A stretch of 64,000 nucleotides of DNA from a virus. The position numbers and the translations under genes are program-made. The DNA is taken from positions 1 to 64,000 of the IMG/VR virus record IMGVR_UViG_3300024255_000011; one strand, given 5' to 3'. Below are positions 12,429 to 64,000 of the stretch, piece by piece (within the stretch, counting starts at the first letter, position 1; every line of letters begins with the position of its first letter). The notes beneath the pieces are model-generated. The model did no database searches, was not told where the DNA came from, and saw nothing but the letters and a program-made list of their open reading frames with translations.

Positions 12429-12433
12429 AATTA

Positions 12434-12796: not shown

Positions 12797-12797
12797 A

Positions 12798-13763: not shown

Positions 13764-13765
13764 AG

Positions 13766-40161: not shown

Positions 40162-40686
40162 TTAATCGTACTGTTCTACTTCAATGGGTACGTTACGATG
40201 TTCTAGAATAAACAACTCATTAGATTCTGAGTATATATTGGCTAGAGTATCAGAAGATTCAATGAAGTCTGTATTGTCTTCAGGTATGATTGACATACCA
40301 AATTCTTCAGTAGTAAGTTTAAAGGAAACCCCATCTTGTCTTAATTCAAAGAATAGATCTACTTCATCAACAACAAAACCAGTAGTGTAAGAAACACCCG
40401 TATCATATACGGTAGAGTCATGTTGATATGGATATACAGGCCTTATTGTGTTATCAACATACCTTGCTTCCCATAGCATATTCTCATAATCACTACACAA
40501 AAAAGTGGCGGTTGGACCAGGGTATCCATCAGTCCTTGTAAAGTTAACTGGATTGCAATCTACATCATTTGAGTTATAGTCACCACACCAGTCATCATAA
40601 GTGTTACCATAAGCGTCTGTTCTATTGACACTGATTGGTTGTGGTGAGACGGGATTGCCATCAACGTCGCGTTTTACGTAAGCCAT
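40162..40686 (-). CDS. Hypothetical structural protein
   Basis: 174-aa acidic ORF, TAATG-coupled to the upstream fibre gene. Confidence 0.6.
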   Translation of the reverse strand: MAYVKRDVDGNPVSPQPISVNRTDAYGNTYDDWCGDYNSNDVDCNPVNFTRTDGYPGPTATFLCSDYENMLWEARYVDNTIRPVYPYQHDSTVYDTGVSYTTGFVVDEVDLFFELRQDGVSFKLTTEEFGMSIIPEDNTDFIESSDTLANIYSESNELFILEHRNVPIEVEQYD

Positions 40687-41948
40687 TAGTCGTCAGTAAA
40701 AACTGTTGATTTAAATTCTTCAAATGTTGTTGATGTTTCCAGTGCGTTGAACAGTGATACTCCTATAAAAGATCCTTCTGCTGCTTCATTAGCAATTGAC
40801 TCTACTCTTGTAATGTCATTAGAAGTGGCAATTCGTGATCTTCCTTTAAATCCAGTTTCAGGATCCTCATATCCATTATATGCCTGCGCCCCATCCTTTA
40901 GAGTAACACTGTCTTTAAGTAAATCATTTGAAGATGAAGCTTGATAGATTACTGATTCCAGAAATTGAATTCTTTGGAGAAGTTGTGCGTTTAGATCTTT
41001 CTGAGAAGAAATAAGAGAAGATGTATATGTACCATTCTCATCAATAATATTGCCATAACTTACATCAAGATTTACCGAAGTTTCGGTTGGTTCTGGATTA
41101 TATGACCTGACATATGTTAGTTCTCCAGTATTAATGTTATATCCTAGACCACCACCATGATTTTGTGTGCCATCATTCTCCTGAATGACCACATCAATCT
41201 CTGGGACGACTTCTAATGCCCAAGACTTGACATCTGATTGAAGACTTTCTGCAGAAAACTTGACCGGTCCTCCACTTTCAACTTCCAGTACACTCTGTAC
41301 ATTGGATTCGATATGAACACCACCTCTGGTCTTATTCGCAAGGATGTGAACTCCCTCTCCTACTTTGAACTTATCTCCACCGAACTCAGTGTCTGAGTCA
41401 AAAGTTTTAGCCCCGACAAATGATCCTATAACTTGACTGGCTTCAACTTTAATATCGACAAAGTTACCAGTACTTTCACCACCCTCTAAAGGAGGTTCAA
41501 CATTCATCAAAGTTTCATGATATCCAAATGGGAAGTCAGTTAAAAGTCCAGAGGTAATTGAGTATCCGCCCTCACCTGAGTACAATGAAGATGCAGTAAC
41601 TCCACCCACTTCATTAATTGAGTCTACCTTTATTACTTGATCTCCACCATCAACTCTTACCAATTCACCCACCAAATATCCAAATCCGCTGGCCACAACA
41701 TACATTTCTAGGATGACGCCTGTCCTAACTTTGATGTTAACAGTCAATCCCTGACCTACACTATCTGTGTCTAGGGTACTATTGTCATCCTGAAGAACTG
41801 AGTTCTCAGGGGTGGTTCCGACAGAATAGGCCTCACCAGTGTCATTTACCAGATCAGAGAAGTTGATATTGTCTTTTAGTAAAGTAGATACAAACCCAGT
41901 TTCGGGTTTGTATACCACTAATAGATCTGAAGATTGCAGTATTGCCAT
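40686..41948 (-). CDS. Fibre/structural protein
   Basis: N-term LQSSDLLVV docking half-motif; 'GQGLTV..GFGYLVGE' beta module. Confidence 0.6.
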   Translation of the reverse strand: MAILQSSDLLVVYKPETGFVSTLLKDNINFSDLVNDTGEAYSVGTTPENSVLQDDNSTLDTDSVGQGLTVNIKVRTGVILEMYVVASGFGYLVGELVRVDGGDQVIKVDSINEVGGVTASSLYSGEGGYSITSGLLTDFPFGYHETLMNVEPPLEGGESTGNFVDIKVEASQVIGSFVGAKTFDSDTEFGGDKFKVGEGVHILANKTRGGVHIESNVQSVLEVESGGPVKFSAESLQSDVKSWALEVVPEIDVVIQENDGTQNHGGGLGYNINTGELTYVRSYNPEPTETSVNLDVSYGNIIDENGTYTSSLISSQKDLNAQLLQRIQFLESVIYQASSSNDLLKDSVTLKDGAQAYNGYEDPETGFKGRSRIATSNDITRVESIANEAAEGSFIGVSLFNALETSTTFEEFKSTVFTDD

Positions 41949-41967
41949 GATACTTTATGGTTATTTA

Positions 41968-43593
41968 TCAGTAGTTGGGGAGAAGGTAGAAGTTGTTGGG
42001 TAGGAAGAAATCAACAGTTTGATGAGAGTTGGCCACCAAACTTGGCATCTTAGTAGATACCTCATCAACCCTGTTGTGTTTCTGACTTAGTGAGGTTGAC
42101 AACTCAGTGTTTGAGACGATTGATGTCAATCCAGATGCACCTATGTCAGCAGTCTTACCGCTGATTGAAATTCTCCCTTCAAGTTCCTCAACTTTGAGTG
42201 CACTGTATGTTCTGCCTGTTACAGTATTGAGTGTACTTGTAGTTACAATTTCAGGAATATCGTCATCAGTCAAGCTATCAAGTTTCTGTTTGTCTGATGC
42301 AGACATAAACCCACTATAACTTGAGTATATGTCTAGGTCACCAGTATCAGTCAGGATTACTTTTGCGTCCTTGATTGAGATGTTGTATACATTTTCATCA
42401 GTACTACTTCGTTGAGTAATTATTGAATAGTGAGGATTGCCATATCCCTCATTATTACCTGGAACATAAACAGGTACTTGAATACTTGTAATTTGTGAGT
42501 TGGAAACGCTGTCCTTGATAAGAACAAACTCATTGTATCTAAGAGTATCAATTATTTTTTCAGTCCAAATGATCTTATCATTTTTGGTTACTGTAATCGT
42601 ACCAGTTGCTGCAGTTTCGTCAATCTTTACACCGACTATTGCTTCTCCTACATTACCAATTGTTTCGTTTACAATAAAGAGTTTGTCACCATCTTTATAA
42701 GCAATATGACTTGAATTCGTTGAGATAGTTGCATTAACAACCTCACCTTGAACCATTGTCAAGTCCAGTCGCATTCCACTGCCTTGGATATTGTTGCGAC
42801 GAGGTATTGTTTCAACACCGTAACTGTAACTTTCAAGAGAAGAACTAGCAAAGTAATATCCACCAACTAATTCTCGATCATTTGATTCTCCGTCTTCATT
42901 CTGAACAAACTCAAAATCTGTTACTGCTCCAACGGAACTAACATCCGTGATCTTAACATAAACTCGATCACCTACTTCAGGTGTCTTCTGTCTAAACTCA
43001 ATAATATCATCTACTTCATAATTAAATCCACCCTGACTAATTACTGCGTCAGTAGTCCTAATGAATCCATCGATAACTGAAACCGTTAACAAAAACCCAT
43101 AAGATTTGGAGGCGTCTGTTAGATTTCTCTGTCCAGTTTCAACTCCCTCACCAAAGGTTGGGATTGTACCATTCAGTCCTCTGTAGTTATTTCCACCTTC
43201 AAACAATTCAACACTGGTAAATTCATCATCAGAAACACCTTTCCACTCAGATGTCTTCAGAGTGAGTTTGCCATCTGGATGTTCAGCTAGGTCTGGATTG
43301 ACAATATAAAAGTCACCAGTGTTGAGATTCTGTGTGTCTGCGGGTGGTTGTAGGTCTTCTGTTACCTCTCCAACAAAGTTTAGTGTGTTGGGGAAGTTAA
43401 CATCAAGGTATCCCGTTTTCTCGTCATAGACGAAGTTTTTAGATGGGAATACTTTACCTGCCACTCCACTGATCTGATCTCCCTGTTTGGCATTGGGTAC
43501 TGTCAGACCTTCAACTACTGTATTTCTCTTAGCTGTAAAATACGAGTCACCCCTTTTAACAATAAACTGATCGGTATCTTGAATAGTGGACAT
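41968..43593 (-). CDS. Fibre/structural protein
   Basis: N-term IQDTDQFIVKRG, fibre motif SGFMSASDKQKLDSL, C-term LPNNFYLLP. Confidence 0.65.
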   Translation of the reverse strand: MSTIQDTDQFIVKRGDSYFTAKRNTVVEGLTVPNAKQGDQISGVAGKVFPSKNFVYDEKTGYLDVNFPNTLNFVGEVTEDLQPPADTQNLNTGDFYIVNPDLAEHPDGKLTLKTSEWKGVSDDEFTSVELFEGGNNYRGLNGTIPTFGEGVETGQRNLTDASKSYGFLLTVSVIDGFIRTTDAVISQGGFNYEVDDIIEFRQKTPEVGDRVYVKITDVSSVGAVTDFEFVQNEDGESNDRELVGGYYFASSSLESYSYGVETIPRRNNIQGSGMRLDLTMVQGEVVNATISTNSSHIAYKDGDKLFIVNETIGNVGEAIVGVKIDETAATGTITVTKNDKIIWTEKIIDTLRYNEFVLIKDSVSNSQITSIQVPVYVPGNNEGYGNPHYSIITQRSSTDENVYNISIKDAKVILTDTGDLDIYSSYSGFMSASDKQKLDSLTDDDIPEIVTTSTLNTVTGRTYSALKVEELEGRISISGKTADIGASGLTSIVSNTELSTSLSQKHNRVDEVSTKMPSLVANSHQTVDFFLPNNFYLLPNY

Positions 43594-43946
43594 TAGAGGC
43601 TCTCCAATTCTGGAACGTTATCAAAGTTTAAAGTATGAGTGATCATTCGAACTTCTTCTTGTCCAATTATCTGTGGTCCTGGATCTTCAACATTAACACC
43701 AGTGGATGCTGCGAACTCAAGTTTAGGCCCACTTGTGCCTCCACCAGATCCACCAGAACCATCGCCACTAGGAGTACCAAAATCGAAGCTAAGTACCCAC
43801 CTTCCCACTAAGTGTCTTTCTGACACTGGGAGATCTTGTTTTTGGTCACTATCACTAGTGATGTAAGTCCAGACTTTGTATCCATCTCCTGTGGAAAGTG
43901 CCTGTCCCTCAGTGGCGGGTAATGCGACTGGGTATAAGATCGACAT
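43593..43946 (-). CDS. Small adaptor protein
   Basis: N-term YP...P..G...WTY...W anchor motif, Gly/Ser linker, C-term NFDNVPEL. Late promoter at 43965-43971. Confidence 0.6.
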   Translation of the reverse strand: MSILYPVALPATEGQALSTGDGYKVWTYITSDSDQKQDLPVSERHLVGRWVLSFDFGTPSGDGSGGSGGGTSGPKLEFAASTGVNVEDPGPQIIGQEEVRMITHTLNFDNVPELESL

Positions 43947-43974
43947 GGTATCAACTTTTATTATTATTTATCAC

Positions 43975-44024
43975 GACAAGATCCATTGTGAACATGTTAG
44001 ACAAGATCCATTGTGAACATGTTA
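43975..44024. repeat. Exact 25-bp tandem duplication
   Basis: GACAAGATCCATTGTGAACATGTTA at 43975-43999 and 44000-44024. Confidence 0.95.
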
Positions 44025-45199
44025 CCTGGATTGCGATAGTACTCTACTGCTTCATTTATATGGTCGCCGGGTCTGAATATTCTAACAAATTTTCGATCCT
44101 CCTCTCCACCAGCGGAGTCAAAATTGCATTGACCTTTATATTCCATTTCTAATAATTTTACATCCCACATATCAAGCCACATAGAACTACCAACATAACC
44201 AGATTGCCTGGATGAGTGAACCGAAGTGGCAATGAACCCAACACATATCATCTTTTCATCCCAGACCTTATTGGCTGCGTTCTTGCTTATGGTAAGTGTA
44301 GCCACGCCTTGAACCCGCGGGTTCCATGTACTATTGCCTTTTGGGCCATGTTCTTCCCAAATCTTCCCACCTCTTGAGTGGGTGGTAAGATTATATTCTC
44401 TTATCTTGTTATTAGCGATCCAGTACGACCCCGATTTTGTTGGCCAATCTGGTGTACCACTTTGACTCCAATCTTTAGTGACAGTGATACACTCTGCCAA
44501 GTATATTTTGGCGTCACCACTTTTAACATATGCAAGACAGAAAGCTTCAATTGGATTCCCCCCATGTTGATTATTTAAAGAAGGAAGTAAGGATTTTTTA
44601 TCTTCATTGAAGTGACATTCATACCTAAAGGTTATCGCTGATGCTCTGATATGATGGGATATTTTATCAGAATCGATGGTTGTATATGAATCTTTTCCAA
44701 ACTTGGCACCTTCCATCACACCCCACATAAACCTGTTTGAAACATTATTGTCTTGTCTTTGATATGCTCTAAACTTTACGGAACCATATTGTATACCCCT
44801 ACCATTATTAAAAAGTGTTTTGGCATTAATACCTTGTGAACTTATTTTGTTATTTTTATTGGTATCATTAATTGACCAATTGCTCCTACTCCATTCCAGC
44901 GGTTTATCATTGCCACTGAAGGCTTCACTCTCACCCATCAAATACTTAAATTTCCATTTTTTAGTCTTATTGGTACAATCTTCATAATTATAGTCAGTAA
45001 ACCCATCAGAGGTCCCGCTAAACTTTGAATTGTCGTTGCCTTTAGGACTAAAGTATCCCCCTCCCACATCGAATTCGGGTTTGGCCATTTCGAGAGCAGA
45101 ATTCAGGGGGGGATTGATTGTACTGTGTCTAAAATTTGAGGATATTCTTACAGATCGAAATGTTGCAAGACCCGTTTGACTAACGTTTGAATCTGTCAT
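43997..45199 (-). CDS. Putative fibre tip / receptor-binding protein
   Basis: 400 aa, aromatic- and beta-rich; TAATG-coupled to the 910-aa fibre. Confidence 0.5.
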   Translation of the reverse strand: MTDSNVSQTGLATFRSVRISSNFRHSTINPPLNSALEMAKPEFDVGGGYFSPKGNDNSKFSGTSDGFTDYNYEDCTNKTKKWKFKYLMGESEAFSGNDKPLEWSRSNWSINDTNKNNKISSQGINAKTLFNNGRGIQYGSVKFRAYQRQDNNVSNRFMWGVMEGAKFGKDSYTTIDSDKISHHIRASAITFRYECHFNEDKKSLLPSLNNQHGGNPIEAFCLAYVKSGDAKIYLAECITVTKDWSQSGTPDWPTKSGSYWIANNKIREYNLTTHSRGGKIWEEHGPKGNSTWNPRVQGVATLTISKNAANKVWDEKMICVGFIATSVHSSRQSGYVGSSMWLDMWDVKLLEMEYKGQCNFDSAGGEEDRKFVRIFRPGDHINEAVEYYRNPGNMFTMDLV

Positions 45200-47931
45200 T
45201 AGCTGACCCTCAATTGTAATTGAGAACTACTACTACTGTAGTAAAATCCACCCACCTCGACGTTACTTTGTTGGCTTTCTCCCAGATAACAAACTTGATC
45301 ACCTGGGATAAATGGAGTGGCTTTTGTTGAAGTAGGTACCCATGCGCCCCCTTCACCCTTTTCAGGGTCCCAAATTAAACTGTGGCCATCTTGAAGGTCT
45401 TTTCCGTCACCATAATCAAAATCTTGTAATTCGTTCGCTGAAATCTTGTAAACATCAACAGAGACCTGACCATTCTCATCGGTCGACATCTTCAGATTGT
45501 TAGACCGCGATACTAAGTATGATGTCTTGTTGGCTAGCCCGCTTCCGCCACCGCCGGTTTGAGGGTATTCACACCATAAGAAATCCTTATTAACAGCATC
45601 GGTGCCAAAGATACATCGATCCACATTTTGGATTGTCTTACCTAAAACATTTAAAATTTTATCTCGGATTTCCAGTGTAGGGGTTTCTGAGAATGAGAAG
45701 GTAAAGTTTTGACTGTTAGTGTTAACAAAGGTTACACCATTCGCATTTGCCACCGCTGGATAGTAAGTTGAAGTCGCTTTCTCTCCGTCGAATTTAAAGA
45801 AGGTTCTATCTCCATTATCCTCATGTAATAAAAGGTCCCTATGTCCAATTGTAGTTTTACCAGTATTTTCAACTGAGAATAACTTATAACCTTCTGTGGT
45901 GTGTATTTTGAGTCCGTCCTCAGCAGTAGCACTTGGGATTCTGATGTGCAAACGACCTGTCATATTATCACCTGACTTGAATACAAACAAGTCATTGACA
46001 TCATCAAGGGTCAGACCAGAGGTTTTATCATAGAACTTAATTTTGTAATTAAATCCCTGTTGGATAACATCAGAGTTCTTAAAGAGTTCAACACCAGTGA
46101 TGATCATTACACCATTAGGCTTCACCTCCATTGCTACAGATCTATAAACTGCGTATGCAGTCGTTCTTGCATCTGAAGATGAGATTTCAAAATAATCACC
46201 AACCTTTAGGAGTGCACCAAAATCAAGTGTAACAGGATCATCAGAACCAATCACTGATGTCCTGGGATCAATAACAACAACGTCTACGTCTCTTTGTTCT
46301 GTATTACCACCATCAACCTGGTAATCTTGAACAAAAGTTTTCCAATCAAAGATCTTACTTTCTGAGTAAAGAGGATCATTTGAATCTGCAGGTTTAATAG
46401 TTGCCGCAATACATTGAGCCCAAAAAAGACCATTTTCGTATTCAGTTGGGTCATAACTACTAGCGTCGCCCACGTCATATCCTGGATAATGTTTGGACGT
46501 ATTTGTTGGATCCTCAATATCATATCCTATATTAAGACTATCATCACATTCTGATGACTCTCCATCTAAAAGCATCCTATACTGGAAGACATCAGTGGCG
46601 TTTGCCAGTGTATCGATTCTCTGACTGACGTCTGTAATCTTATTATCCAACAATGAATCCATCAGATCCACATAGGCTCTAGGAGGGATAATACCAGGGT
46701 TAGCAGAATACTCTGGACTAATCAGGTTAGGGGGGAATAGATATTCTGAGGCTTTCTCAAGTACTACTCTGTCAGTGATAGTGGTGAACGCTGGGGTTGT
46801 AATGGCTCCCAGGTCATCAAATACTTCTGGTTCATACTTAATTTTTGTTGCACCATTGTGGTTAATGTGCCATGGTCCATTGAAATTGAATTTAGTTATT
46901 TCATTGGTAACAATATTAACAATATTCTCTTTAGGATTTGTGATTTCCAAGACTGGAAAATTCTGATCTAACTGAGAGAATCCAGTGATTTTGAAGGTTG
47001 GTCCAATGACTGGGTTTGTCGTTTGGATACCAGTTGTAAGTGCAGCTTGAATTGGGTTATTTACATCAGTGATGGATACAAACAACCCTCCACTCATAGA
47101 GTCACCAATCTTATTGACATATACTTTATCTAACGTGCTCTGTAGATCGATGACTAGCTTTACAAGATATCTGTTATCGCCATCTTGTACAGAAGGTTTT
47201 CCTAACAGAGGTTGTGATGCAACATGCTCAACATCAAACTGATACAGATAAGAAGGATCAGACTGTGTGCTGTTGGCCTCAAGAACTTTTGGGCCAATGT
47301 TTATGATCTTATAAAAACCATAATTAAAATTATCAACAACATCATTACCATTACCATCCTTAGTAATGTTTATAATCTCAATTAGAGACCCGAGGGTAGC
47401 TAGATCTAGATCGATCTTTTCGCCAACTGCTGGGGTGTCACTGATGAACACAGACAGTACATCTTGCCATAGATAATTAGATGTAGCGAGATAGAATTTT
47501 TTTCTGGAATCCTCAATCGTACTACCTGCAATGCTGTCACTATAGACAGGCAAGATAGATCTCTTACAAGCATCAAATTCTTCACCGATTGTGCCTGCAC
47601 AATTATTGGCACTCAGAACCTCAAAGTTTCCTGCGGCAACTGCATCAATCGCGTATGTGTACTCGTGTTGGATAAGAGTATCATAAAGTTCATTAGAGAT
47701 CTTGACAATTCTGTCAGTCAACCCATCAATCTGGGCGTAAATTTCAGAATCTCCATCCTTTCTGTCTTGAATTTCTCCTTCAATCTTTTGATCTAGTTCA
47801 CTCAGATCTGTATTGAAATCGTCAAGTACGTATCCTGCGATATCAGAAAGGGTAGTAGTTCCTTTTTTATATCGTTTGGATCCGCCATCACCTCTTTGAA
47901 CGTAAAACTGATCGTTTGGTAAAAGTGCCAT
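45199..47931 (-). CDS. Tail-fibre-like protein (910 aa)
   Basis: N-term NDQFYVQRG; YVNKIGDSMSG and KSGDNMTG fibre motifs; 'DAVNKDF'; C-term GGFYY...LQLR. Confidence 0.7.
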   Translation of the reverse strand: MALLPNDQFYVQRGDGGSKRYKKGTTTLSDIAGYVLDDFNTDLSELDQKIEGEIQDRKDGDSEIYAQIDGLTDRIVKISNELYDTLIQHEYTYAIDAVAAGNFEVLSANNCAGTIGEEFDACKRSILPVYSDSIAGSTIEDSRKKFYLATSNYLWQDVLSVFISDTPAVGEKIDLDLATLGSLIEIINITKDGNGNDVVDNFNYGFYKIINIGPKVLEANSTQSDPSYLYQFDVEHVASQPLLGKPSVQDGDNRYLVKLVIDLQSTLDKVYVNKIGDSMSGGLFVSITDVNNPIQAALTTGIQTTNPVIGPTFKITGFSQLDQNFPVLEITNPKENIVNIVTNEITKFNFNGPWHINHNGATKIKYEPEVFDDLGAITTPAFTTITDRVVLEKASEYLFPPNLISPEYSANPGIIPPRAYVDLMDSLLDNKITDVSQRIDTLANATDVFQYRMLLDGESSECDDSLNIGYDIEDPTNTSKHYPGYDVGDASSYDPTEYENGLFWAQCIAATIKPADSNDPLYSESKIFDWKTFVQDYQVDGGNTEQRDVDVVVIDPRTSVIGSDDPVTLDFGALLKVGDYFEISSSDARTTAYAVYRSVAMEVKPNGVMIITGVELFKNSDVIQQGFNYKIKFYDKTSGLTLDDVNDLFVFKSGDNMTGRLHIRIPSATAEDGLKIHTTEGYKLFSVENTGKTTIGHRDLLLHEDNGDRTFFKFDGEKATSTYYPAVANANGVTFVNTNSQNFTFSFSETPTLEIRDKILNVLGKTIQNVDRCIFGTDAVNKDFLWCEYPQTGGGGSGLANKTSYLVSRSNNLKMSTDENGQVSVDVYKISANELQDFDYGDGKDLQDGHSLIWDPEKGEGGAWVPTSTKATPFIPGDQVCYLGESQQSNVEVGGFYYSSSSSQLQLRVS

Positions 47932-47935
47932 TTTA

Positions 47936-48157: not shown

Positions 48158-48183
48158 GTTTTTTAGTTTTAGTTATTTATTAG

Positions 48184-57100: not shown

Positions 57101-57207
57101 TTGAGGTCGTTTAACTGTTGGTTATTAGAATCGCTGGACGAGTCGTTGGTGTCCTGATCTTCGTACTGAGAGTCTCCACCACTCCCATAATTATATGAGT
57201 AAGTCAT
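48184..57207 (-). CDS. Giant 3007-aa repeat protein, probably virion-associated
   Basis: Uninterrupted 9-kb ORF with about 11 degenerate W..xGEP...GPAYW repeats, one hydrophobic helix and a C-terminal domain shared with neighbouring tip proteins. Confidence 0.75.
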   Translation of the reverse strand: MTYSYNYGSGGDSQYEDQDTNDSSSDSNNQQLNDLNYQIVDDVTVSTIGSGVSTVSNPIFDNIDIDEETLNELLEEAAWLPGDILRDVIFCHGGQIKLDESQPWSPENINVDSIHQFPECPGLEIWYRSGWDYKNYTVAPENGYQTQNSLKVRLVKLGMPDGIDNEPMNPHRILNLPEKVVKFITAEPKKFIWVHPFLDKKEDAVDAMDRVGTTIHKSMDKWQSGKLTNGPSNCDLYLRAGFHSMPGGNNAFADQPKGSGMVYEDNESDRKWVFVLGNSRGRDQMGYPNQPTEGLDYGVVGMSGFFRSHYNVSAETKSNVGIKFAYTMNRIDTSSGLLEANVKKLQEAMEALEDMTLIELISEITGDRPDWRPPSETPEAEGVGSFNLDELEDPTGGGTGEYNDHDKAIIQNAIDKCNAIQKSISNNFSEFGFNLKEIIKRGSFRKLSARKITDDPQTHTALAVLYDMTNFYINKQLGVEKEYDHKVIVSVDNISQKIKNGEDLSWREVINNLLTGYIIRNREATRVLNQDFDFEQIGEYLLDRNTDNDQLNLINFIRDVTKEKRASKFRYVNGALAVVLETGFVYTSDQYNKGHFGWCDACMDAGGQISNYFKYSECEYRTYDSNGQEIITVLDRHEHDGSVNFDVYSLYDGPAPEPATFDARNRVATEAEPGVDILVTNYYDNRPDFTAQEWRGLYCVPSGSTAAMPDWSMYDKLPTNICHTYGPFSDDEMSIYYNFIVPKCEHKGPSDFGITWWFASTKDGPWVAGDSQGPTVEGYNCDKRNATGYKSYKPKKRYMRASFWQWFGVNNTKKGSKVKREYYPPGYNYMGIDYEGKLNEGKYIDVLVTPKIKGDPYDGYDGTEIKGATYYSDVQTAAVLDTKPYGWSIGQLPDLNDEYWIKPISHESAGKGQQYVGQPGYYRIYGIPPEDNIYEELRSRPAPIKQKLWVSEYPEGTDISNDGDDSWRREWTERTFVKGTGYENYRTFQLANRDAQILLGAIAPDRIDQEDWGNRGEPWTITEKIDRAKWIHGPGYWGELHINRERPNFHDDVWQTPLNHFNRYLPGEDFDGLFGQRPNNVRVEEGERLKVSAYSGDVNTGELDTRTKYDYDIYFVLETNHGLDVDNFPEKDLPDDHVNFIYGGTILKNDYNGFVVTPPSSHMIFHARNTNRVKADWKNNGEPVSISTSDHVNQAPEVSIEHMGGARGNRDLRKGPAYWAFGDFGSVTDVRKGFRGYPDFNSAYYNFPLNDYNETYNSIRVRKGRKYHITPGDNMIYTHRIIWGTDDRCIQPNYYEDPSFGNKEIGSDPNRKFYHYEDDNSLLLRPKHSGASKTIEVEAQGDYLFFGAFRYDQTDDDKGNPLVDRPINEYWSRFGEGIDVEITEVPDVTGCGFWASEEVYSSNNPKEPNWSRYDKPMIHLTQEMKEILRLDGQTQSELEGQLYESDQTKKQYERVFDINSDDIIDVKNPPPANQRILYAFKKTARTPNVDIVFRFIKREGLSQNDAQEFQMEEFVWRSGLNDEQVVTIFCQSEYIQYKVYAAGKSEEQWSKKGEPLYLELYREVKKDANDMSQYWIDWENDATYPNKYSLVTTDQLKNNHWVNPLNGAVPTDEGTAVQWQPGKRYKIWTSADPTLEKPNPNYMHVFLLGQAPRDLNVPGNKDFRMMGVCGNQDVPVEDRWAWHQRNNRSFNGEDNAIYFTFPEIIDYNWSVVVSGAWHTGARRVSEGGTGLTGWNPRGENLRVYWKEEPLEELQGPAYWAGYDQEGHLPNPGFQPGAHVTDYYAYPNIERGEDPTHSAGGQNDYYYGDTFVLGEKNDEPNIRKGRRYRITKLQNDVYNNNIYKPDDYKLHLPHEMRMWSSNKIKQLKPDASNFRDWVAGRYVNRQLSHFDFTAENDTIVFGAFDFDASERGPDSWSKSGEPTNHKFEALTEMPYSGPAYYSSGKDTFPSVADPHFYKGLNTHSVKAETYYTIEKNTDFNSSGGTYQIWYIKDDNKNNWAQMQQWAEDESDNTKSWPPIPLQGTHPEDLLRWLIVDNSYHIPDKVRDMFYEKGPVITTDTQSDGMTFKTPKGVTRIFYGWYGKQAIGKFNRDGEPVRFKFKEQEKWKTEGPLYWGGEQEAVDPPEFGNTHFESPLRYIKVKAGRRYQVKPKSATALAHFQEIQIYEFDPTQNPDPLNPLTNRVDLQFKKIANFQDTQQEINIDVSKDGLILSATYIKAIHETPLVTDWSPKGEPSPLTFREVDSITGPAYWGDTGHTWDQPGAPGKQYLPEFTDSKWIKPLNTLSINGDAHLDDFYVELTQNIDFALSVFVVEERKHLSPNDNNDRFYFHYQGTFAKRSAKGSTVPIEPHEDVHPKYIIFGVGNFDADSGRSFEDWSPRGEEVPVRIKKKEWQRGPSFPGNKNLVSGKEFDLSETRWRYSAAQPPKNGGKIIGGSTYEFKYASWMESGVPSYNNNTKSKDLRYQVVWCKSVGDGPNNPFGDKRPTKTDFKYNSRVLDPNSKVDKKFTLTAPIGYDYIFFVVCDKSNKNTPTSGINPKTWSPDGHLSPWKYKRVHKDLHLDDIPFLKEILMAIAALLAALLGFLLYFAAMAPFETLLEMVDEGPGNKYPIRRKKIEITEDNKRTYGDPFNPEYITNDEEFYTGLSNDPIYFNFVADHAVRAWARIMRVRHNGYLFHLTNAKCVKSTGDNTLKKEFEVMNLTATHGFNYTQLDGGNVRKALRKYVPWDGDTGFRNVELDDPYKTSTTSYRSYAIDTSIDENRQLTGFDIRKKWFQPSLTYSPQMGKQGFWKSYAGAQYKLASNYDSGRNVTSYPTTFGSANNIDNIFSVRGAGLTTDVMYSSNSSNHCYGWEILNGTEKDPFGFKIPNGEFIPGIEFDMLFYDYNSKTENAGNWQIVQMHLSFDVPDLLEPDTILKSVAVKLTPDSSTNYKFRNSFDNTSSNHQMNQLNKNNNLIHMRLMGDQKIPAGVHFKGISACIWVGEDNVKTGRTFVISNLAPIHQYDNPPHPDE

Positions 57208-57956
57208 ATTGTCTCCCTAATTGTAACATATAGTGTTCCGTCAGATTCTGTTAAATACAGTCTACCTGGTGGTCCTGAACTTGGTACATAAGGAATGACC
57301 TGTGCGTTAGCTCCCCCATGAGCACCATTGAGTCCATTAACACCATTCTGTCCACCTGGCCCTGTGGGTCCAGGTCCACCTTGTGGTCCGTTTCCACCTG
57401 CAGGTCCTTGAGTTGCACCAAAGGTACCAGCGTATTTCCATTCGAATGAAATGTCCCAGAAGAATACTGAAGATGTGTCATATCCGCTTGCGCCAGGAAG
57501 ACCCCCTTCAACAAAATTGTCATCGGGCCCCGAACAAAGTGCACAATCACCAATAGTTGGACTATAATCGTTTAGATAATATGGGTACAAATTGCTGGTT
57601 ATATCTGGTGTACCTCCTTTCCCGTCAGTGATACCGTTCTTTGTAACTTCTTCAAACAATTGTTTAGAATTATTGACAACAATCCTAAGGTCTAAACCTT
57701 GGCCTGCAGGTCCAACTGGACCTTGGTCACCCTTATCACCTTGCTTACCAGGAGTTCCATCCACGCCTCTGCTTCCTGCAGGTCCCGCGGGCCCAACAGT
57801 TCCTGGAGTACCTGGCGATCCGACTGCACCAGGAACTGGCACATACTGAAGATTACCCCAAAGGTTCCATGTGGATCCATCCCAGACCCACAATCTATTT
57901 CCGTCGACAAAGTGTTGATTTTGTCCGGGTGATGATGGAAATACTGTTTCTGACAT
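57204..57956 (-). CDS. Collagen-like fibre protein
   Basis: Two G-X-Y tracts, N-term FPSSP...WVWDGSTW, C-term PPGRLYLTESDGTLYV. Confidence 0.85.
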   Translation of the reverse strand: MSETVFPSSPGQNQHFVDGNRLWVWDGSTWNLWGNLQYVPVPGAVGSPGTPGTVGPAGPAGSRGVDGTPGKQGDKGDQGPVGPAGQGLDLRIVVNNSKQLFEEVTKNGITDGKGGTPDITSNLYPYYLNDYSPTIGDCALCSGPDDNFVEGGLPGASGYDTSSVFFWDISFEWKYAGTFGATQGPAGGNGPQGGPGPTGPGGQNGVNGLNGAHGGANAQVIPYVPSSGPPGRLYLTESDGTLYVTIRETI

Positions 57957-57985
57957 TGTATTAATACTTTATTGTTATTTAGATG

Positions 57986-59089
57986 TTACGAATCAGTGTC
58001 GACTGTGCTTGTCTGATGTAGGGTGATAAGTGGGTCCTTTTTACTGATTGAGTTATATATACTATACAACTCTGGCCTGATAATATTATATGGAGAGGCT
58101 TTAGCATTAAACCCATGGTATGAAGGATCATCATAGAAAACTTTTGCACTAGCTGGATCAATAACTTGTACGTCGCTAACATTAAACATTCTGTTTTTAC
58201 TGCTGCTGCTGTTTCCATATGAGTGTTGCCAGTGGAAACCCAGAAAAATTGAGTTAGCTGGTGGAGACTCGTGCTGATTAATCATAGCGCGGATTCTAAA
58301 GGGTCTGTCGAGTAAATCAAGATCTTGATTCGCGCCATTCTCCGGCTCCATGATCTCGTCCCCTGCACCCTTCGTGAAGGAACCGGTGTTTCTAAAAATG
58401 TATTTGCCATTCGCTGGATCGCAGTTGGCTTTGCCATTCCAATTATCTCCATTGGGTGTCAATTTATTACAGATGTACCGGCCATATTCAAATGAGTACC
58501 ATATCCCCCAAATTTGATTGATTTGTTGCCTTGTGTAAAATTCTTGCTTGGAGGAAGATGAGAGCTTATGGTTTGTTCCTGCCCCAGAAATAGCTCCCAT
58601 AGATTTACTTACATAATAAGTAAAGCTAATACCCCTCACTGGATAAGGGTATCCTTTCTCCCCTCTACATGTGAAACCACCTCCAAAAGAATTCGCCGAA
58701 TTCTTTGCATCGGAGAAACATACAATTGACGTGGGGTACATTTCCTCCGCGTCATCAAAGTTAGCTGACATATTATTAATATGGGTTCTTACTTTAGATC
58801 CCACTTTATAAAAGATGCTGTAATCAGAATGCCTGTGTTTACTATTTTTGTGTCCTGTATATCCATTTCCATAAATCACAGTCTGATTTCCACCAAATCC
58901 ACCGCTTCCACCAGTGTTATTGTTAATGCCAGTTCCATCCATTAGTGTGTAGTCATTACCAATATTTTCATAGTAGATTTCCCCACCCCATGGAGTAAAG
59001 AGATCATCGTTAAAACTTTTTGGAGCTACTTTGTTGTTACTTTCGGCTTTGATTGGAGTAAAGCCGTGAATTGTTCCTACATATCCCAT
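57986..59089 (-). CDS. Putative fibre tip / receptor-binding protein (start revised to MGYVGT)
   Basis: TAATG overlap with the upstream stop at 59089. C-terminal half resembles the giant protein's C-terminus. Confidence 0.55.
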   Translation of the reverse strand: MGYVGTIHGFTPIKAESNNKVAPKSFNDDLFTPWGGEIYYENIGNDYTLMDGTGINNNTGGSGGFGGNQTVIYGNGYTGHKNSKHRHSDYSIFYKVGSKVRTHINNMSANFDDAEEMYPTSIVCFSDAKNSANSFGGGFTCRGEKGYPYPVRGISFTYYVSKSMGAISGAGTNHKLSSSSKQEFYTRQQINQIWGIWYSFEYGRYICNKLTPNGDNWNGKANCDPANGKYIFRNTGSFTKGAGDEIMEPENGANQDLDLLDRPFRIRAMINQHESPPANSIFLGFHWQHSYGNSSSSKNRMFNVSDVQVIDPASAKVFYDDPSYHGFNAKASPYNIIRPELYSIYNSISKKDPLITLHQTSTVDTDS

Positions 59090-60612
59090 TATCTTTGATT
59101 CCAGTAAAGAGTGCCGCCATCTGACCACAATGCTCCAGGCAAATTAGGATCTTCTTCAGGAACTACAAGTGGTCTTGAATCCACGTAGGCCTTGTTCGCT
59201 GCGTGCTGAGGAGCAGTAGGATCTTGTTCCAACAAATATAATTGTCCCGTCATAGAATTCGACTGACCACCGGCCTTCGGTAGATAAGTTGATAAATCAG
59301 CTTTGATCTGATCTTCGATGGCCTTTTTGGGCATCAAGGACTTGTCATTATTATAAGATCCCTCAAAATGAATCTCGTCACCAGAACTTTTATGATAAAC
59401 ATACAGAAGATCCTGTGTGTTAATGTCGGTTCCCTTCTTCCTTCCTTGAACTATAAAAGTACCTGCGTTGTTATTCGCCTCACCTGATCTATTGATAGTT
59501 AGGGCGGTAGTTCCATTTAAAGTGCCGCCTTTTATTTGTAAATATGGTCCCTTAGTATTATCACTGACACTTATACTACCAAGACGCCTGTTAAGATGAC
59601 CCTTTGTCACCACTGCAGTGTCTGTCTTATCATTATCATAATCTAGATCATGATCATGCTCACTGTTTAAATTGACATCATTGTCTGAAGTGTTAACAAT
59701 AAAAAGGTGTTCAGTTTCATTGATACCCTTAACGGATAGTACTTCAGGGTCGGTATTGGTGAGTCTTAGATATCCACTGATGTCACCACCTTCGGCACTA
59801 AAGGACTTTTTGTAATTTGTAAATCTATAATAGGTATTAGTGGATGTGAACAGCATCTCCTTCTCAGGAGACGAAGAAGAATGGTACTCTACTCTGATAC
59901 CTAGGTACTCTGTATCACCAGAAGAATTTTCGTCTCTGTCCTTATACTCCGTAACCTGTTTGACTTTGTAAATGCTGTAGTCAAAATTACCATCAGATCC
60001 TTCAAATGACACTTCAAGAGTGTCACCGATACCCATGTTGTTAAAGATATCAGAGAAAACTCCTTCTCTATCGTTCTGGTGAATGAAAAATTCTACAATA
60101 TCTCTGTACTGAGTACTAAAGACGTTGACACCTGGATCAGAAATTCCCTGATCTAGACTATCGTCAACAATTCTTTTGTTGATACCTGCGATTGTAAAGG
60201 CAGTGGCACCAGGTACGCTTGCTTCATATGTTACATGTTCCCAGTCGTCAAGTTGGGTGGCCAGAGCAACATCATAGTCAATAAGATCTTCAAGAACACT
60301 GCCTCGTATTCCAGACTCCAGATTGCTATTTGCCGCCGCGTTACCGGAAACGTAATTATAATTAGAATCAATTGTAATATCACTGGTTGCACTGACAAGA
60401 TCATAACCCCTCTCTAGGGCTGTCTTGTCGTCATCAAGCTGGGCGAGTACCCAGTCTGTACTTGCGACGTTATCTGGTCCAACAATGTTCCAGCTATTTG
60501 TTAGCGGATCATATTGGTATACGATCCCACCTGTCTTTTCGAGTTCAGCGATATCACCTGGCTTAGGATAAATTGCACCCGGACTAGGATTTCTTGGAAA
60601 GTAAATTGACAT
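59089..60612 (-). CDS. Tail-fibre-like protein
   Basis: N-term FPRNPSPG...YQYD....W; YLPKAGG...MTGQL...DPTAPQHAANKAYVD; C-term PGALWSDGGTLYW. Confidence 0.75.
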   Translation of the reverse strand: MSIYFPRNPSPGAIYPKPGDIAELEKTGGIVYQYDPLTNSWNIVGPDNVASTDWVLAQLDDDKTALERGYDLVSATSDITIDSNYNYVSGNAAANSNLESGIRGSVLEDLIDYDVALATQLDDWEHVTYEASVPGATAFTIAGINKRIVDDSLDQGISDPGVNVFSTQYRDIVEFFIHQNDREGVFSDIFNNMGIGDTLEVSFEGSDGNFDYSIYKVKQVTEYKDRDENSSGDTEYLGIRVEYHSSSSPEKEMLFTSTNTYYRFTNYKKSFSAEGGDISGYLRLTNTDPEVLSVKGINETEHLFIVNTSDNDVNLNSEHDHDLDYDNDKTDTAVVTKGHLNRRLGSISVSDNTKGPYLQIKGGTLNGTTALTINRSGEANNNAGTFIVQGRKKGTDINTQDLLYVYHKSSGDEIHFEGSYNNDKSLMPKKAIEDQIKADLSTYLPKAGGQSNSMTGQLYLLEQDPTAPQHAANKAYVDSRPLVVPEEDPNLPGALWSDGGTLYWNQR

Positions 60613-60616
60613 AGTA

Positions 60617-61153
60617 TCAAGGATTAATAATTGACTCTAGTTGAGCAACTTGCTCTGTAAGTTGATTAACCTGAGACTGAAGATCGTTAACCAGTGAGGC
60701 AGTAGACTCTGTAAGGTAATGAGCTGTTGTGACACTAACCCAGTTACCTGTGTATGGATCTACAGTATTGCCATCATCATCAACAACAGGTGAAGCGTTT
60801 GGGGTTACATAATAAATCTTCAGGAGACTATTTTTAGTATCATACCAACAGGTTCCAGGAAGTGGATCAATTGGGATGTCAATATTATATTGGTCTAGGT
60901 TTGGATAAACATCGGCCAACGTTGGAGGAGTATCACCACTGTAAATAATTGATCCGGTGTTTTGACCAGAGGTGACTCCAATCCAACCAGGAGTACCTTG
61001 TGAATCAATATCAGATGAAAATACGTACATCTGCAGAGAGGATGAACTGACCCAAAGTTCTCCATCTCGTCTGAGAGGAGAATTAACATCAGGTTCTACC
61101 GGCCTAAGAAGTACCGTGTTTCTAAGTTCTGTTACTCCGGGAGTGCTAGTCAT
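60617..61153 (-). CDS. Structural protein with G.LW/G..WYD motifs and C-terminal coiled coil
   Basis: RDGELWV, PGTCWYD motifs. Late promoter at 61171-61177. Confidence 0.6.
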   Translation of the reverse strand: MTSTPGVTELRNTVLLRPVEPDVNSPLRRDGELWVSSSSLQMYVFSSDIDSQGTPGWIGVTSGQNTGSIIYSGDTPPTLADVYPNLDQYNIDIPIDPLPGTCWYDTKNSLLKIYYVTPNASPVVDDDGNTVDPYTGNWVSVTTAHYLTESTASLVNDLQSQVNQLTEQVAQLESIINP

Positions 61154-61176
61154 TGTATTACCCTTTTTGTTATTTA

Positions 61177-61851
61177 TTACTCAACCAAACCAACCTGACT
61201 TCTCAGAGTATCTACTCTGGCTTGTAGAGAGTTTGTTGAGGTGTGTAAGTTTCTAAGTGATGATGCAGGAAGTTGATTATTAAAGTTTTCCTTTGGATTC
61301 TCAATTGCCTCAATAGATCTTTGAGTAATTGAAGCCCACTGCCAACCAATCATATCCCCGTCATCGTCACGAAGTTCAACTCTCACCTTAAGATCCACAT
61401 CTTCTCTGTTAAAGTACATATGACTTTGTTTGAAGATATCAATTCTATTTTCAGGTGTAGGGATAGTGATGTCATCACCATCTGAAGCTGTTGGAAGAAT
61501 CAGATAGTCATAAGCTCGTTTGTTAGTTGTCAACGCATACCATCTATTAGGTTGTGCGTCTTCAAACGTCATTTCGTTCTCATTGTACACATACATCAAG
61601 TACATGTTGTTGGGGTCAATCCACAAGTTGCCACCATCTGGATCCAGTGGTGGGTTTGGAATATCGGTACCTGGAATGTAGAAGAGCCAAGAATTTCTTT
61701 CGAAATCGTAATAGTAAGGCCCAGATGTGTACTCGTTATTTGTGATTTGATAGTTTACTGGAGCATTTACAAAATACTTTGGTGCCGGTTTGTTAGTGCT
61801 TTGAGCAGCCGCAGAGTATTCAGTTGCTTCTGTGTTATAGGAATTTGTCAT
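61177..61851 (-). CDS. Structural protein with GNLWID motif and C-terminal coiled coil
   Basis: YYYDFERNSW and GGNLWIDP..MYVY motifs. Confidence 0.6.
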   Translation of the reverse strand: MTNSYNTEATEYSAAAQSTNKPAPKYFVNAPVNYQITNNEYTSGPYYYDFERNSWLFYIPGTDIPNPPLDPDGGNLWIDPNNMYLMYVYNENEMTFEDAQPNRWYALTTNKRAYDYLILPTASDGDDITIPTPENRIDIFKQSHMYFNREDVDLKVRVELRDDDGDMIGWQWASITQRSIEAIENPKENFNNQLPASSLRNLHTSTNSLQARVDTLRSQVGLVE

Positions 61852-61853
61852 GG

Positions 61854-62996
61854 TTATGTGAGGATGAGCTCACCTTGTAAGGTTGAATCTAGATCATTCC
61901 AAACGTAAATAGTTTGTTGGTTATTAATATTCAAATTACCAATTGAAAGGAGGTAGCCAAAAGCATCACCTGTTTGACCCTCAGTTGGAATATCCACAAT
62001 TGGACCATACTCAATTCTCTCTGTGCTGATTATGTCATTCTGTGTTGCTTGGCCAAATGGCTTAGTTGCAAACTTGAATGCAAAGGCGGTGTCATCTTGA
62101 AGAGAATTAATTGGGATGACAAAGAACTGAGGACTCAGTAATGTTGAATCCACTGAGAAGTTACCATCACCTGTAATGACTTGAGTCGATCCGTCGTTAA
62201 ACGCAAGGAATTCTTCGCTGACACCATCTTGATTCACAAGGCCAATTCTCATTCCAATGTATTGTAAAGGATCAACCTCAAGAGGTACTGGTCTCAATCT
62301 AATAGCAGGAGAGCTCTTAGACTCAGAAACAAACTGATCTGAGTATTCTTCCTTAGCTGAAAGTTTACAAGAAACGTTAAATGTTACTTGAAAGTCTCCA
62401 TCAAAAATTGCAGTTCCTGGTTGAGCGGTTACGTTAGTGATAGCAGAATTAGGATTACTGAATGTAATGTAATGCTTTGTTAGTACTCCATCGACATTCC
62501 TTTCGACATACTCAGGTGCCGATCTCCACTCGTAATTGATATATGACTCTGGTGCACCACCTTGTGGTCTGGTGATTTGGAACATAGTCTCTTCACCTTC
62601 GAAGGGAGTAGACTTACCAGAAATCTCAATTTTACCAATAACAAGATTACGATTTGGATCTTCGGGTGACATCTCTGGGTTGGTAGAGGATACCCACCTA
62701 CCCTGTACAGGATCAGAAGAATCGAGAGTTGGAGGTTTATGATACACTCTCAACTCGCATAGTCTTTGATCCCACCACAAGTCACCATCAAGAAGTTGAA
62801 CACCCTCGAGCGCAGGATCAATGGTGTCACTATACATCTTAGCGCCAGGGCTATTCAAAGTCTTCCAGGAATTCTTTCCTGGATCCCAAAAATACACAAC
62901 CTTAGTTTGTGGATGAACCCAAGTGGAGTAACTTTCTACTCCTAGACCGCCTGGTCCACTTGGGAAATCATCAGAATCTAACCAACTATCTGTCAT
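61854..62996 (-). CDS. Structural protein with anchor motif, GDLWWD motif and Ig-like segment
   Basis: FPSGP...YFWD....SW, DGDLWWD...LRVY, 'YINYEW...FSNPNSA.T.VT'. Late promoter at 63014-63020. Confidence 0.6.
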   Translation of the reverse strand: MTDSWLDSDDFPSGPGGLGVESYSTWVHPQTKVVYFWDPGKNSWKTLNSPGAKMYSDTIDPALEGVQLLDGDLWWDQRLCELRVYHKPPTLDSSDPVQGRWVSSTNPEMSPEDPNRNLVIGKIEISGKSTPFEGEETMFQITRPQGGAPESYINYEWRSAPEYVERNVDGVLTKHYITFSNPNSAITNVTAQPGTAIFDGDFQVTFNVSCKLSAKEEYSDQFVSESKSSPAIRLRPVPLEVDPLQYIGMRIGLVNQDGVSEEFLAFNDGSTQVITGDGNFSVDSTLLSPQFFVIPINSLQDDTAFAFKFATKPFGQATQNDIISTERIEYGPIVDIPTEGQTGDAFGYLLSIGNLNINNQQTIYVWNDLDSTLQGELILT

Positions 62997-63016
62997 AATC
63001 CTAGTGTTTTAGTTAT

Positions 63017-64000
63017 TTATTGGTTTTCTTGGGACTCTAGGATAGAGAGTCTAGCACTCATTCTAGAAATCTCATTTTTCAGTTCCTCAACCTCTGCATT
63101 TACTTCAAATGCCGTTGTTGCGGGAATTGATTTATATCCAGTACCCTGAACAGGAACCCATACAAAGTCAGTGGATCCAGATGGGATGTAAGCGACTCTC
63201 ATTTCAGCGGAGTCAGTATCAAACCAAAGATCACCAGACTTCGTAGTGCCCTTTAGAGGTTGAATTGAGTCGACATGTACCTCAAATCTGTTATCAAGGA
63301 CAGCCTTAAGGTCACCTGTCACAGAAATCCAAGACTTAGCTGAGAAGTTGTATGTGTATATTATGTAAGTCTCTGCGTCAATCCAGAGATCACCATTCTT
63401 AGCTATTGAAATAGGAGGCTCAGAGTCCTGTAACCAGATGTTACTGAAAGACTGAGTTACATTATCTTCTCCACCACCAGATGCTGCACCCAATTCAATC
63501 CAGAAGACATTTTCATCTGGCTTGTTGATTAGGTCATCATCAGAAGGATTAACGGTTCTGAATTCACAAACATAGATGGAGTAGTCAGTTGGATCGATCC
63601 AAAGATCACCCCTCTGAGGTACATAGTGACCCTTGACATCATTGATATCTGGGATAATATGTACTGTTGGTTTCAGTGTGTGAAGTTCATTCAGAATGTC
63701 AAGGTTCAGGATATTGGCCTGTTCCTGAGTTTCATATCTGATCAGTTCACCATCAGGTCCAACAATATCACTGGTACCTTGAGGACCATCACCTAGGGCC
63801 CCTCTCGAATCACCAAAGAACCTTTTGCTAGTCTCGACCGCACGAGGAGTGTTAACGAGAACAACATCTCTAGTAGTTACTCTGCCCAGTGGGTTGTCGA
63901 TACAAACAGATCCCGACGCGGCTCTCATAAAGGTCCCTTCAGGACCCTGAGGACCTGATCTACCATAAACCTTAGTCAGGCTGTTAGTGCCATTCAGGTT
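63017..64000 (-). CDS. Structural protein with three GDLW.D repeats, 5'-truncated by the window
   Basis: Frame stays open from 63928 to 64000 (NLNGTNSLTKVYGRSGPQGPEGTF-M). Motifs RGDLWID, NGDLWID, SGDLWFD. Confidence 0.65.
   Translation of the reverse strand, partial: NLNGTNSLTKVYGRSGPQGPEGTFMRAASGSVCIDNPLGRVTTRDVVLVNTPRAVETSKRFFGDSRGALGDGPQGTSDIVGPDGELIRYETQEQANILNLDILNELHTLKPTVHIIPDINDVKGHYVPQRGDLWIDPTDYSIYVCEFRTVNPSDDDLINKPDENVFWIELGAASGGGEDNVTQSFSNIWLQDSEPPISIAKNGDLWIDAETYIIYTYNFSAKSWISVTGDLKAVLDNRFEVHVDSIQPLKGTTKSGDLWFDTDSAEMRVAYIPSGSTDFVWVPVQGTGYKSIPATTAFEVNAEVEELKNEISRMSARLSILESQENQ

Follow-up and report, generated by a model that had tools for sequence, protein, structure and literature searches.

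Introduction

The long tail fibre of T-even phages is a chain of gp34, gp35, gp36 and gp37, and the gp38 adhesin of the T2/S16 type is encoded separately. The gp37-type adaptor of K1-5, K1E and SP6 is said (in work attributed to Leiman et al. 2007) to be a split-off virion-binding domain carrying receptor-binding proteins (RBPs) that lack it. Branched or multivalent receptor-binding complexes occur in CBA120 (TSP1-4, Ackermannviridae), G7C and RaK2/Klebsiella phages (PMC11414711, PMC8825819, PMC10253068), and the lactococcal tripod of Tuc2009 and TP901-1, in which one baseplate protein holds several receptor-binding trimers through N-terminal insertion, is a solved example of branching (PMC4742702). 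Here we analyse a block of tail-fibre genes in the opening part (positions 1–64,000, the window) of IMG/VR record IMGVR_UViG_3300024255_000011, a 108,850-bp contig with a CheckV completeness of 62%. On balance we think it probable that these genes form parallel, late-promoter fibre cassettes with a shared attachment module, here called T2, small adaptors and separately encoded, adhesin-like tips. T4-like cyanophages are a major cause of death among marine and freshwater picocyanobacteria and, to our knowledge, lack T4 gp9, gp10 and gp11, which hold the fibres on the baseplate.

The first-pass annotation of the window had drawn the block as a multi-armed adsorption apparatus, with hub genes and four arms (A to D). 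Its open reading frame (ORF) coordinates and minus-strand assignments all hold, and so does the picture of several arms with shared connectors; the hub-and-branch arrangement is unproven, and the hub genes are absent from relatives that bear anchors.

As in CBA120 and G7C, this phage appears to have several RBPs with different distal parts, conserved N-terminal attachment elements and clustered genes, and the complex would give multivalent adsorption. The connector differs, being a small beta-meander repeat in a phage with no gp10-like (XD) or other docking domain detectable by sequence. Adaptors C and D and the adaptor after the gp12-like gene have the split-off layout of the K1-5/SP6 adaptor, but with unrelated sequences, in a myovirus instead of a podovirus, and with a hand-over that would be by a short C-terminal tail beside a truncated N-terminal domain. 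With T-even fibres the block shares a gene order that follows assembly order and a variable adhesin gene directly downstream of the distal fibre gene; it differs in having no gp34–38 homology and in its three or four parallel sets, each with its own late promoter. The gp12-like protein shares the Collar domain and receptor-binding-region fold of T4 gp12, which by contrast has no T2 anchor or modules, and whose partners gp10 and gp11 are absent here. Tuc2009 and TP901-1 are siphoviruses with unrelated sequences, a weak, sub-threshold BppL_N match in a neighbouring gene being the only trace of their system. The defining domains of the CBA120/G7C/RaK2, K1-5/SP6 and T-even gp38-type systems are all undetectable here. 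The resemblance of the block to them is one of logic.

Results

Source phage and setting of the fibre block

The portal, sheath, terminase, major capsid, gp13 and gp14 of the contig are all T4-like. Its portal is 71–75% identical to those of the Synechococcus phages S-B68, S-CREM2, S-H34, S-N03 and S-CRM01, which form 'cluster C' of the T4-like cyanophages (PMC10665884), and to judge from these genes the source is an uncultured cluster-C T4-like Synechococcus myovirus. The fibre block lies between the baseplate wedge genes and gp13, with every gene considered here on the minus strand (Table 1). Library scans placed almost none of its proteins in a Pfam or PHROG family. When every protein from gp8 through gp13 was scanned against Pfam and PHROG, families of the gp9, gp10 and gp11 types were all absent at the level of sequence. 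Because no gp10-like, gp9 or gp11 domain is detectable in the region, its connectors differ in sequence from those of CBA120 and G7C, and on this point the first-pass annotation, which had called them unlike gp10-like docking, is upheld. Megablast of the fibre region and tblastn of fibre A against phage records gave zero matches. Searches for related loci, run with tip A as a single protein and as an alignment against viral and metagenome contigs, returned none for tip A, and none were found for fibre A. There is no tRNA inside the fibre region.

A module family shared by anchors, internal repeats and C-terminal hairpins

T2 is a beta-meander of ~45 residues with the pattern P..P..G.LW.D...G.LY.Y, a variable loop and W..V. 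A hidden Markov model (HMM) seeded on the G.LW.D sites found 15 copies in the contig (independent E values, iE, 1e-8 to 1e-18), so that the G.LW.D repeats first noticed in the upstream genes are real. The same HMM detects the N-terminal 'MALNFP' anchors of S-CRM01 at 3e-7 and 2e-4, and an anchor HMM built from S-CRM01, S-B68 and S-CREM2 N-termini only matches internal modules of this contig. The C-terminal motifs that precede the tips correspond to the first hairpin of T2. In an AlphaFold2 (AF2) model of the gp12-like protein (predicted local distance difference test score, pLDDT, 74) the anchor has three strands in the same order as in the modules, which have four strands each. Their models detect one another, and so anchor, G.LW.D repeat and C-terminal half motif form a single module family. 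What had been described as a three-connector grammar is thereby reduced to two domain families, T2 and the split docking motif, a second N-terminal domain that we call T1.

The C-terminal motif had been reported as common to the genes before the tips of arms A, B and C. Its weight derives from the close likeness between A and B and from the persistence of the half modules in a sister phage described below (PGSLYSRNGTLYW, PGKLYLYSGDMTLYI and GGFWLNTSTGTLLI, the last, from fibre C, nearer the consensus than its counterpart here). As a loose pattern, the motif is not enriched at C-termini, where 8/675 ORFs have it, against 1.3% at random internal positions.

Beyond this contig, the T2 profile matched 4,438 representative proteins at E up to 1e-3 among 1.84 billion, usually with 3–17 copies each. 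Pfam merely grazes the module (DUF7360, Phage_Gene47, DUF2793), which is loosely similar to choline-binding and YD hairpin repeats. A PDB profile search with T2 found no solved structure by sequence; its sole borderline match, 6sjl_D (E 0.037), was taken as chance, and fibritin was not listed. A T4 fibritin foldon as the identity of the C-terminal hairpin was rejected, neither the T2 nor the anchor HMM giving a positive score on T4 wac.

N-terminal anchors

All 648 ORFs of the contig were scored for anchors with an HMM whose 87 N-termini came exclusively from other phages, neither this phage nor its sister contributing; the noise of this HMM begins at about E 0.5–1 (Table 1). Several RBP candidates share the N-terminal attachment element, namely the gp12-like protein, the 89-amino-acid (aa) adaptor and fibres A and B, joined marginally by adaptor C and the protein encoded at 61854. 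The same anchor had been claimed for all four arms: it is detected in A and B and marginal in C, and in D it goes undetected in both phages of the pair. On this sequence comparison three of the four stand, whereas D does so by position and gene layout only.

By tblastn the gp12-type anchor is confined to the 12 cluster-C records; the fibre B-type anchor gives weak matches, 23/25 of them in T4-like cyanophages including P-SSM2 and S-CAM4. Across 50 IMG/VR loci the anchor starts 81 ORFs of 70–1,434 aa, and its extreme N-terminal placement and MALNFP start are kept across unrelated bodies. The conserved anchor bearer is the gp12-like protein, which opens with it and is a relative of T4 gp12 (Collar domain PF07484, E 1.4e-9; Foldseek matches 5iv5_AI, 3.2e-6, 1pdi, 6.3e-6, and 1ocy, 1.3e-4). 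That the anchor is the N-terminus of this short tail fibre points to direct mounting on conserved baseplate parts. Constant in five genomes are the triple T2 array of the gp7-like protein, the gp12-like protein (anchor plus 2–3 modules) and one small adaptor.

A split N-terminal domain and small adaptors

Intact T1 N-termini, of the form I.IS.LP......D.F.V.D....T.K.S, begin five contig genes. A truncated 'head' start, M..L..D.F.V.RG, is found in fibres C, D1 and D2, in three genes at 10.6–13.8 kb and in two S-CRM01 genes. The heads align to the intact-T1 HMM in register from position 14–17 onward, though E values are weak; the tails lack the length needed for scoring. For 11/11 head genes, the gene ending at most 27 nt before has a tail resembling the missing first strand (FNIASLAVLP, FDVQDLTEI and FDNVPELESL are examples). 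We rely on this listing, as a regular-expression contingency test of tail against next head proved too permissive. The split docking motif noticed in arms C and D is real, with a tail-bearing gene before each head gene. Adjacency of tail and head is not a strict rule, because tails also precede intact-domain or unrelated genes.

Small adaptors that consist of anchor and tail only are conserved right after the gp12-like gene in most loci. Adaptor C has the layout of a split-off adaptor: its residues 1–40 align, marginally, to the anchor HMM, and it sits just upstream of a fibre that lacks an anchor. No family match hints at homology to the T7 gp17 N-terminal domain. S-CRM01 22285/22561 is the same adaptor/head-fibre pair. 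In S-CREM2 both ORF127 (adaptor) and ORF128 (T1 fibre, 93 peptides) are in the virion proteome (PMC10665884), by which the adaptor class and the T1-fibre class are shown to be virion proteins in that phage.

Late promoters and coupled distal genes

The coding strand has 27 occurrences of ATAAATA and the other strand has 2. The motif is found 16–33 nt before the starts of gp6, gp8 and the genes starting at 62996, 61153, 48157, 43946, 41948, 36141 and 34860, and a variant, CTAAATAA, precedes 57956, gp13 and others; we use (A/C)TAAATAA as the working late-promoter motif. The exact T4 late promoter, TATAAATA, is present at chance level, with one occurrence, and sigma-70 and terminator scans gave background. 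Arms B, C and D had each been assigned a late promoter of their own, and all three have (A/C)TAAATAA 16–33 nt before ATG. Arm A has none and shares a transcript with the 178-aa gene from the promoter at 61177; arm D makes two transcription units, because the gene at 41948 has its own promoter.

The stop/start overlaps that had been seen before three distal genes are likewise present (TAATG at 59089, ATGA at 57204–57207 and TAATG at 45199). Pairs of a stalk and an overlapping partner also occur in S-CRM01 (20791/21501, 28846/29973) and S-B68 (23801/24541). The perfect 25-bp tandem duplication at the end of tip C (Table 1) may be the scar of a cassette insertion or duplication.

A conservation gradient along the arms

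Synteny is complete with a sister phage, IMGVR_UViG_3300024581_003413 (63 kb), which has all arms, adaptors and hub genes; the layout recurs in simpler form in S-CRM01, S-B68 and S-CREM2. Identity to the sister is highest in the gp12-like protein (Table 1), and the hub proteins range over 51–68%. Within proteins the N-terminal 40 residues are the best conserved (gp12-like, 97% vs 81%; fibre A, 60% vs 39% in the middle; fibre B, 80% vs 48%). The adhesin-like gene adjoins its fibre gene, with TAATG or ATGA overlaps, and is the more variable of the two, with tips at 30–33% and stalks at 41–53%. Such a gradient is what one would expect if the order ran from proximal to distal and ended in receptor-binding parts.

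Six homologues of tip A are about 60% identical to it and one is 33% identical. The core of its AF2 model resembles many beta-sandwiches of carbohydrate-binding modules (Z 4–5.8), a modelled likeness that is suggestive only. Tips A and C, fibres A and C and giant B have no PHROG or Pfam family and no gp37/gp38 homology, and the ESM Atlas held nothing usable for tips A and C; tip C could be given no fold. No mutual similarity is detectable among tips A and C and the giant B C-terminus. Fused fibre-tip forms exceeding tip A in length were looked for and not found, which is weak evidence. Fibre B matches Collagen and tail-fibre PHROGs. Residues 2567–2585 of giant B, unexpectedly in a fibre component, look like a membrane helix: the stretch of 19 residues is strongly hydrophobic (mean Kyte-Doolittle 2.65) and is kept in the sister. 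Two smaller claims were not borne out: ORFs 59089 and 45199 are not significantly paralogous (best BLASTP segment E 0.56), having in common the generic fibre motif Y.K.GD.MTG.L, and 'ORF 63017' is merely the last 303 residues of a 2,266-aa protein, cut by the window edge, with Pfam DUF7107 Cys-rich repeats upstream of its C-terminal T2 modules.

Table 1. Features of the fibre block in order of transcription, followed by related proteins beyond the window edge. Each late unit is given on the line of its leading gene; T2 copies are those counted with the T2 HMM.
Feature	Position	Strand	Late unit (motif)	Description	T2 copies	Anchor HMM E, here / sister	Identity to sister
3' end of 2,266-aa giant	63017..64000 (gene 63017-69817 in contig)	minus		three tandem T2 at C-terminus, then coiled coil	3		
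Late promoter core ATAAATA	63014..63020	minus		24 nt before ATG of 62996			
380-aa protein ('hub' 1)	61854..62996	minus	62996 + 61851 (ATAAATA)	degenerate N-terminal anchor, one T2, beta-rich body	1	0.15 (marginal) / 0.002	51%
224-aa protein ('hub' 2)	61177..61851	minus		one T2, C-terminal coiled coil; no own promoter	1		
Late promoter	61171-61177	minus		before 178-aa gene			
178-aa protein	60617..61153	minus	61153 + fibre A + tip A (ATAAATA)	two T2, C-terminal coiled coil; leads unit of fibre A and tip A	2		
Fibre A, 507 aa	59089..60612	minus		N-terminal T2 anchor, shaft with GD.MTG-type motif, C-terminal half module PGALWSDGGTLYW		6.8e-8 / 1.2e-9	41%
Tip A, 367 aa	57986..59089	minus		start overlaps fibre A stop, TAATG			30%
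Late promoter variant CTAAATAA	57975..57982	minus		before fibre B			
Fibre B, 250 aa	57204..57956	minus	fibre B + giant B (variant CTAAATAA)	N-terminal T2 anchor, collagen-like stalk, C-terminal half module PGRLYLTESDGTLYV		8.7e-6 / 2.2e-8	53%
Giant B, 3,007 aa	48184..57207	minus		start overlaps fibre B stop, ATGA; weak repeats W-S-x-x-G-E-P / GPAYW			37%
Late promoter core ATAAATA	48174..48180	minus		before adaptor C			
Adaptor C, 73 aa	47936..48157	minus	adaptor C + fibre C + tip C (ATAAATA)	N-terminal T2 anchor (marginal); C-terminal tail FDVQDLTEI, resembling first strand of T1		0.072 (marginal; aligned residues 1-40) / 8e-4	
Fibre C, 910 aa	45199..47931	minus		T1 'head' M..LP.DQF.V.RGD; degenerate C-terminal half module			43%
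Tip C, 400 aa	43997..45199	minus		start overlaps fibre C stop, TAATG			33%
Perfect 25-bp tandem duplication	43975..44024			last 8 codons of tip C; second copy gives stop codon; abuts arm D promoter			
Late promoter core ATAAATA	43965..43971	minus		before adaptor D			
Adaptor D, 117 aa	43593..43946	minus	adaptor D + D1 (ATAAATA)	same position as adaptor C; C-terminal tail FDNVPELESL		undetected / undetected	
Fibre D1, 541 aa	41968..43593	minus		N-terminal T1 'head'; tail-like C-terminus ..FYLLPNY			
Late promoter	41962-41968	minus		before fibre D2			
Fibre D2, 420 aa	40686..41948	minus	D2 + 174-aa gene (ATAAATA)	N-terminal T1 'head'; own late promoter			
174-aa protein	40162..40686	minus		start overlaps D2 stop, TAATG			72%
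68-aa protein					1		
89-aa adaptor					1	2e-13 / 1e-15	
gp12-like	74141-75487 (contig)				3	7e-21 / 6e-22	83%
gp7-like					3		

Discussion

In the arrangement that we think probable, each cassette would begin with a T2 module, fused to the stalk in arms A and B or placed on a separate adaptor of 70–120 residues in C and probably D. The C-terminal tail of such an adaptor would hand over to a stalk that is missing the first strand of its own N-terminal domain. A trimeric stalk would follow the T2 module, and a translationally coupled, fast-evolving distal protein would come last. The N-terminal T2 module would be the virion-attachment end, mounting the fibres in parallel on conserved peripheral parts of the baseplate, the most likely acceptor being the triple T2 array of the gp7-like wedge protein. 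The distal proteins would be adhesins held by the C-terminal hairpins of the stalks, as gp38 is on gp37 in T2-type phages, and several receptor specificities could be displayed by one particle or by a mixed particle population. One baseplate carrying many different host-binding tips is the most likely outcome.

Several observations sit uneasily with parallel cassettes. Adaptor D has no anchor that the HMM can detect. The N-termini of the tips are not conserved between this phage and its sister (25%), and the sister has no overlap between tip A and its fibre. For tip A the model is of poor quality (pLDDT 49; predicted template-modelling score 0.59), its structural matches all have Z < 8, and giant B, with 3,007 aa and a membrane-like segment, is an odd 'tip'. 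Because the 6–7 anchor-bearing species exceed the 3 T2 modules of a gp7-like chain, extra acceptors or competition for sites must be assumed. T2 could also be merely structural, since it is a common tandem repeat with 3–17 copies per protein in more than 4,400 clusters.

The same surplus of anchors over gp7-like modules keeps alive the true branched tree, in which anchors dock into internal T2 modules of the hubs (the giant C-terminus and the 380-, 224- and 178-aa proteins) and fibres hang from fibres; we regard it as unlikely. N-terminal and internal T2 copies number 6/13, 7/13, 7/10, 3/8+ and 2/5 in the five genomes, and 13 internal against 6–7 N-terminal copies are more than the gp7-like protein alone offers. 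The four hub segments have a common layout, T2 modules then coiled coil; three proteins with this layout each stand before an anchor- or module-bearing gene, and the 178-aa gene shares a transcript with those for fibre A and tip A. Yet N-terminal copies (plugs) and internal copies (sockets) are unequal in 5/5 genomes, and the anchor also starts the short tail fibre, a part that T4 mounts straight on the baseplate. Moreover, in S-CRM01, S-B68 and S-CREM2 only module-level matches to hub genes 61854, 61177 and 60617 were found, despite the 2–7 anchor-bearing proteins of these phages; anchors therefore do not need these hubs. We favour parallel mounting on conserved baseplate parts over a hub-gene tree because the hubs are absent in relatives, the T2 parts of the baseplate are constant, and the adaptor and fibre of S-CREM2 are in virions. 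A further version, which we find doubtful, makes T2 a self-recognising docking code: on a baseplate without gp9–gp11, an anchor trimer would pack on a single-chain triple T2 array (candidates are the gp7-like and gp12-like proteins and the 2,266-aa giant C-terminus), and distal arrays would be new sockets, giving a branched tree with at least six tips.

Another possibility, to which we give less credence, is that the motifs are generic fibre blocks or foldon-like trimerisation nucleators that join no proteins, attachment being through other surfaces. Thousands of proteins do carry T2 in long tandem arrays; it also flanks stalks of the collagen-like kind, for which a registration domain is needed, and has the loose resemblance to choline-binding and YD hairpin repeats noted above, and the loose C-terminal pattern is at background frequency. 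Adaptors of 70–120 aa are nevertheless anchor and tail only, hence with no stalk to nucleate; they are conserved beside the gp12-like gene in most loci, and one was found in virions. The fixed N-terminal position and MALNFP start on unrelated bodies, and the failure of the T2 and anchor HMMs to detect the fibritin foldon, also speak against a generic block. Least of all do we expect the overlapping downstream genes (tip A, tip C and the 174-aa gene) to encode Tfa- or gp57-type assembly chaperones instead of virion adhesins. Genes for fibre chaperones typically follow the fibre gene directly and are coupled to it in translation, a tail-fibre-assembly-like gene is annotated in the corresponding region of S-CRM01, and a fused fibre-tip form was not found. 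Against this, 367–400 aa is large for a chaperone, the partner in arm B has 3,007 aa, the tips are the most divergent genes of the cluster (30–33%), as expected of receptor-binding parts, and the tip A model resembles carbohydrate-binding beta-sandwiches.

If parallel cassettes are the right description, the shared N-terminal module, the adaptors and the fast-evolving distal genes provide a concrete model for how cyanomyoviruses might build and exchange host range cassette by cassette, one that is relevant to the culturable relatives S-CRM01, S-B68 and S-CREM2. The T2 profile could also annotate fibre genes that currently have no family.

Other features of the contig

Past the window edge the contig continues, in order, with the 2,266-aa giant, a 68-aa ORF and genes of 762, 363, 123 and 89 aa, then the gp12-like short tail fibre, a 2,584-aa DUF4815 giant, gp8, the gp7-like giant and gp6. 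The 68-aa ORF (contig 69835–70041) is homologous to the N-terminus of a 3,105-aa giant of S-B68 and of a 578-aa collagen fibre of S-CRM01; this phage and its sister both have it as a separate gene before the 2,266-aa giant, which has its own promoter. A conserved protein of 123–136 aa (contig 73473–73844), starting MA..YQVN..I.AG.DF.Q.F.L.NPD, follows the small adaptor in most related loci.

Directly upstream of the gp12-like gene (contig ~75490–75700) lies a conserved coiled-coil protein of ~68 aa that ends in ..EIDEIKSLLQQLINK and has a TAATG overlap with the gp12-like start. S-CRM01, where its annotation is virion structural protein, has it too, as do S-B68, S-CREM2 and the sister phage, and coiled-coil C-termini recur immediately before anchor-bearing genes.

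Window positions 10623–14032 and 15407–16492, far from the main fibre block and between replication and head genes, encode another tail/head chain (88, 321, 120 and 601 aa) and a BspA-like protein whose N-terminus is related. Window positions 36239–39769 carry two additional fibre genes of 261 and 914 aa, from PHROG tail-fibre families, with highly repetitive segments rich in Ala, Asp and Gln and, at 38442–38562, a 54-bp tandem repeat; their sister counterparts have 371 and 1,481 aa.

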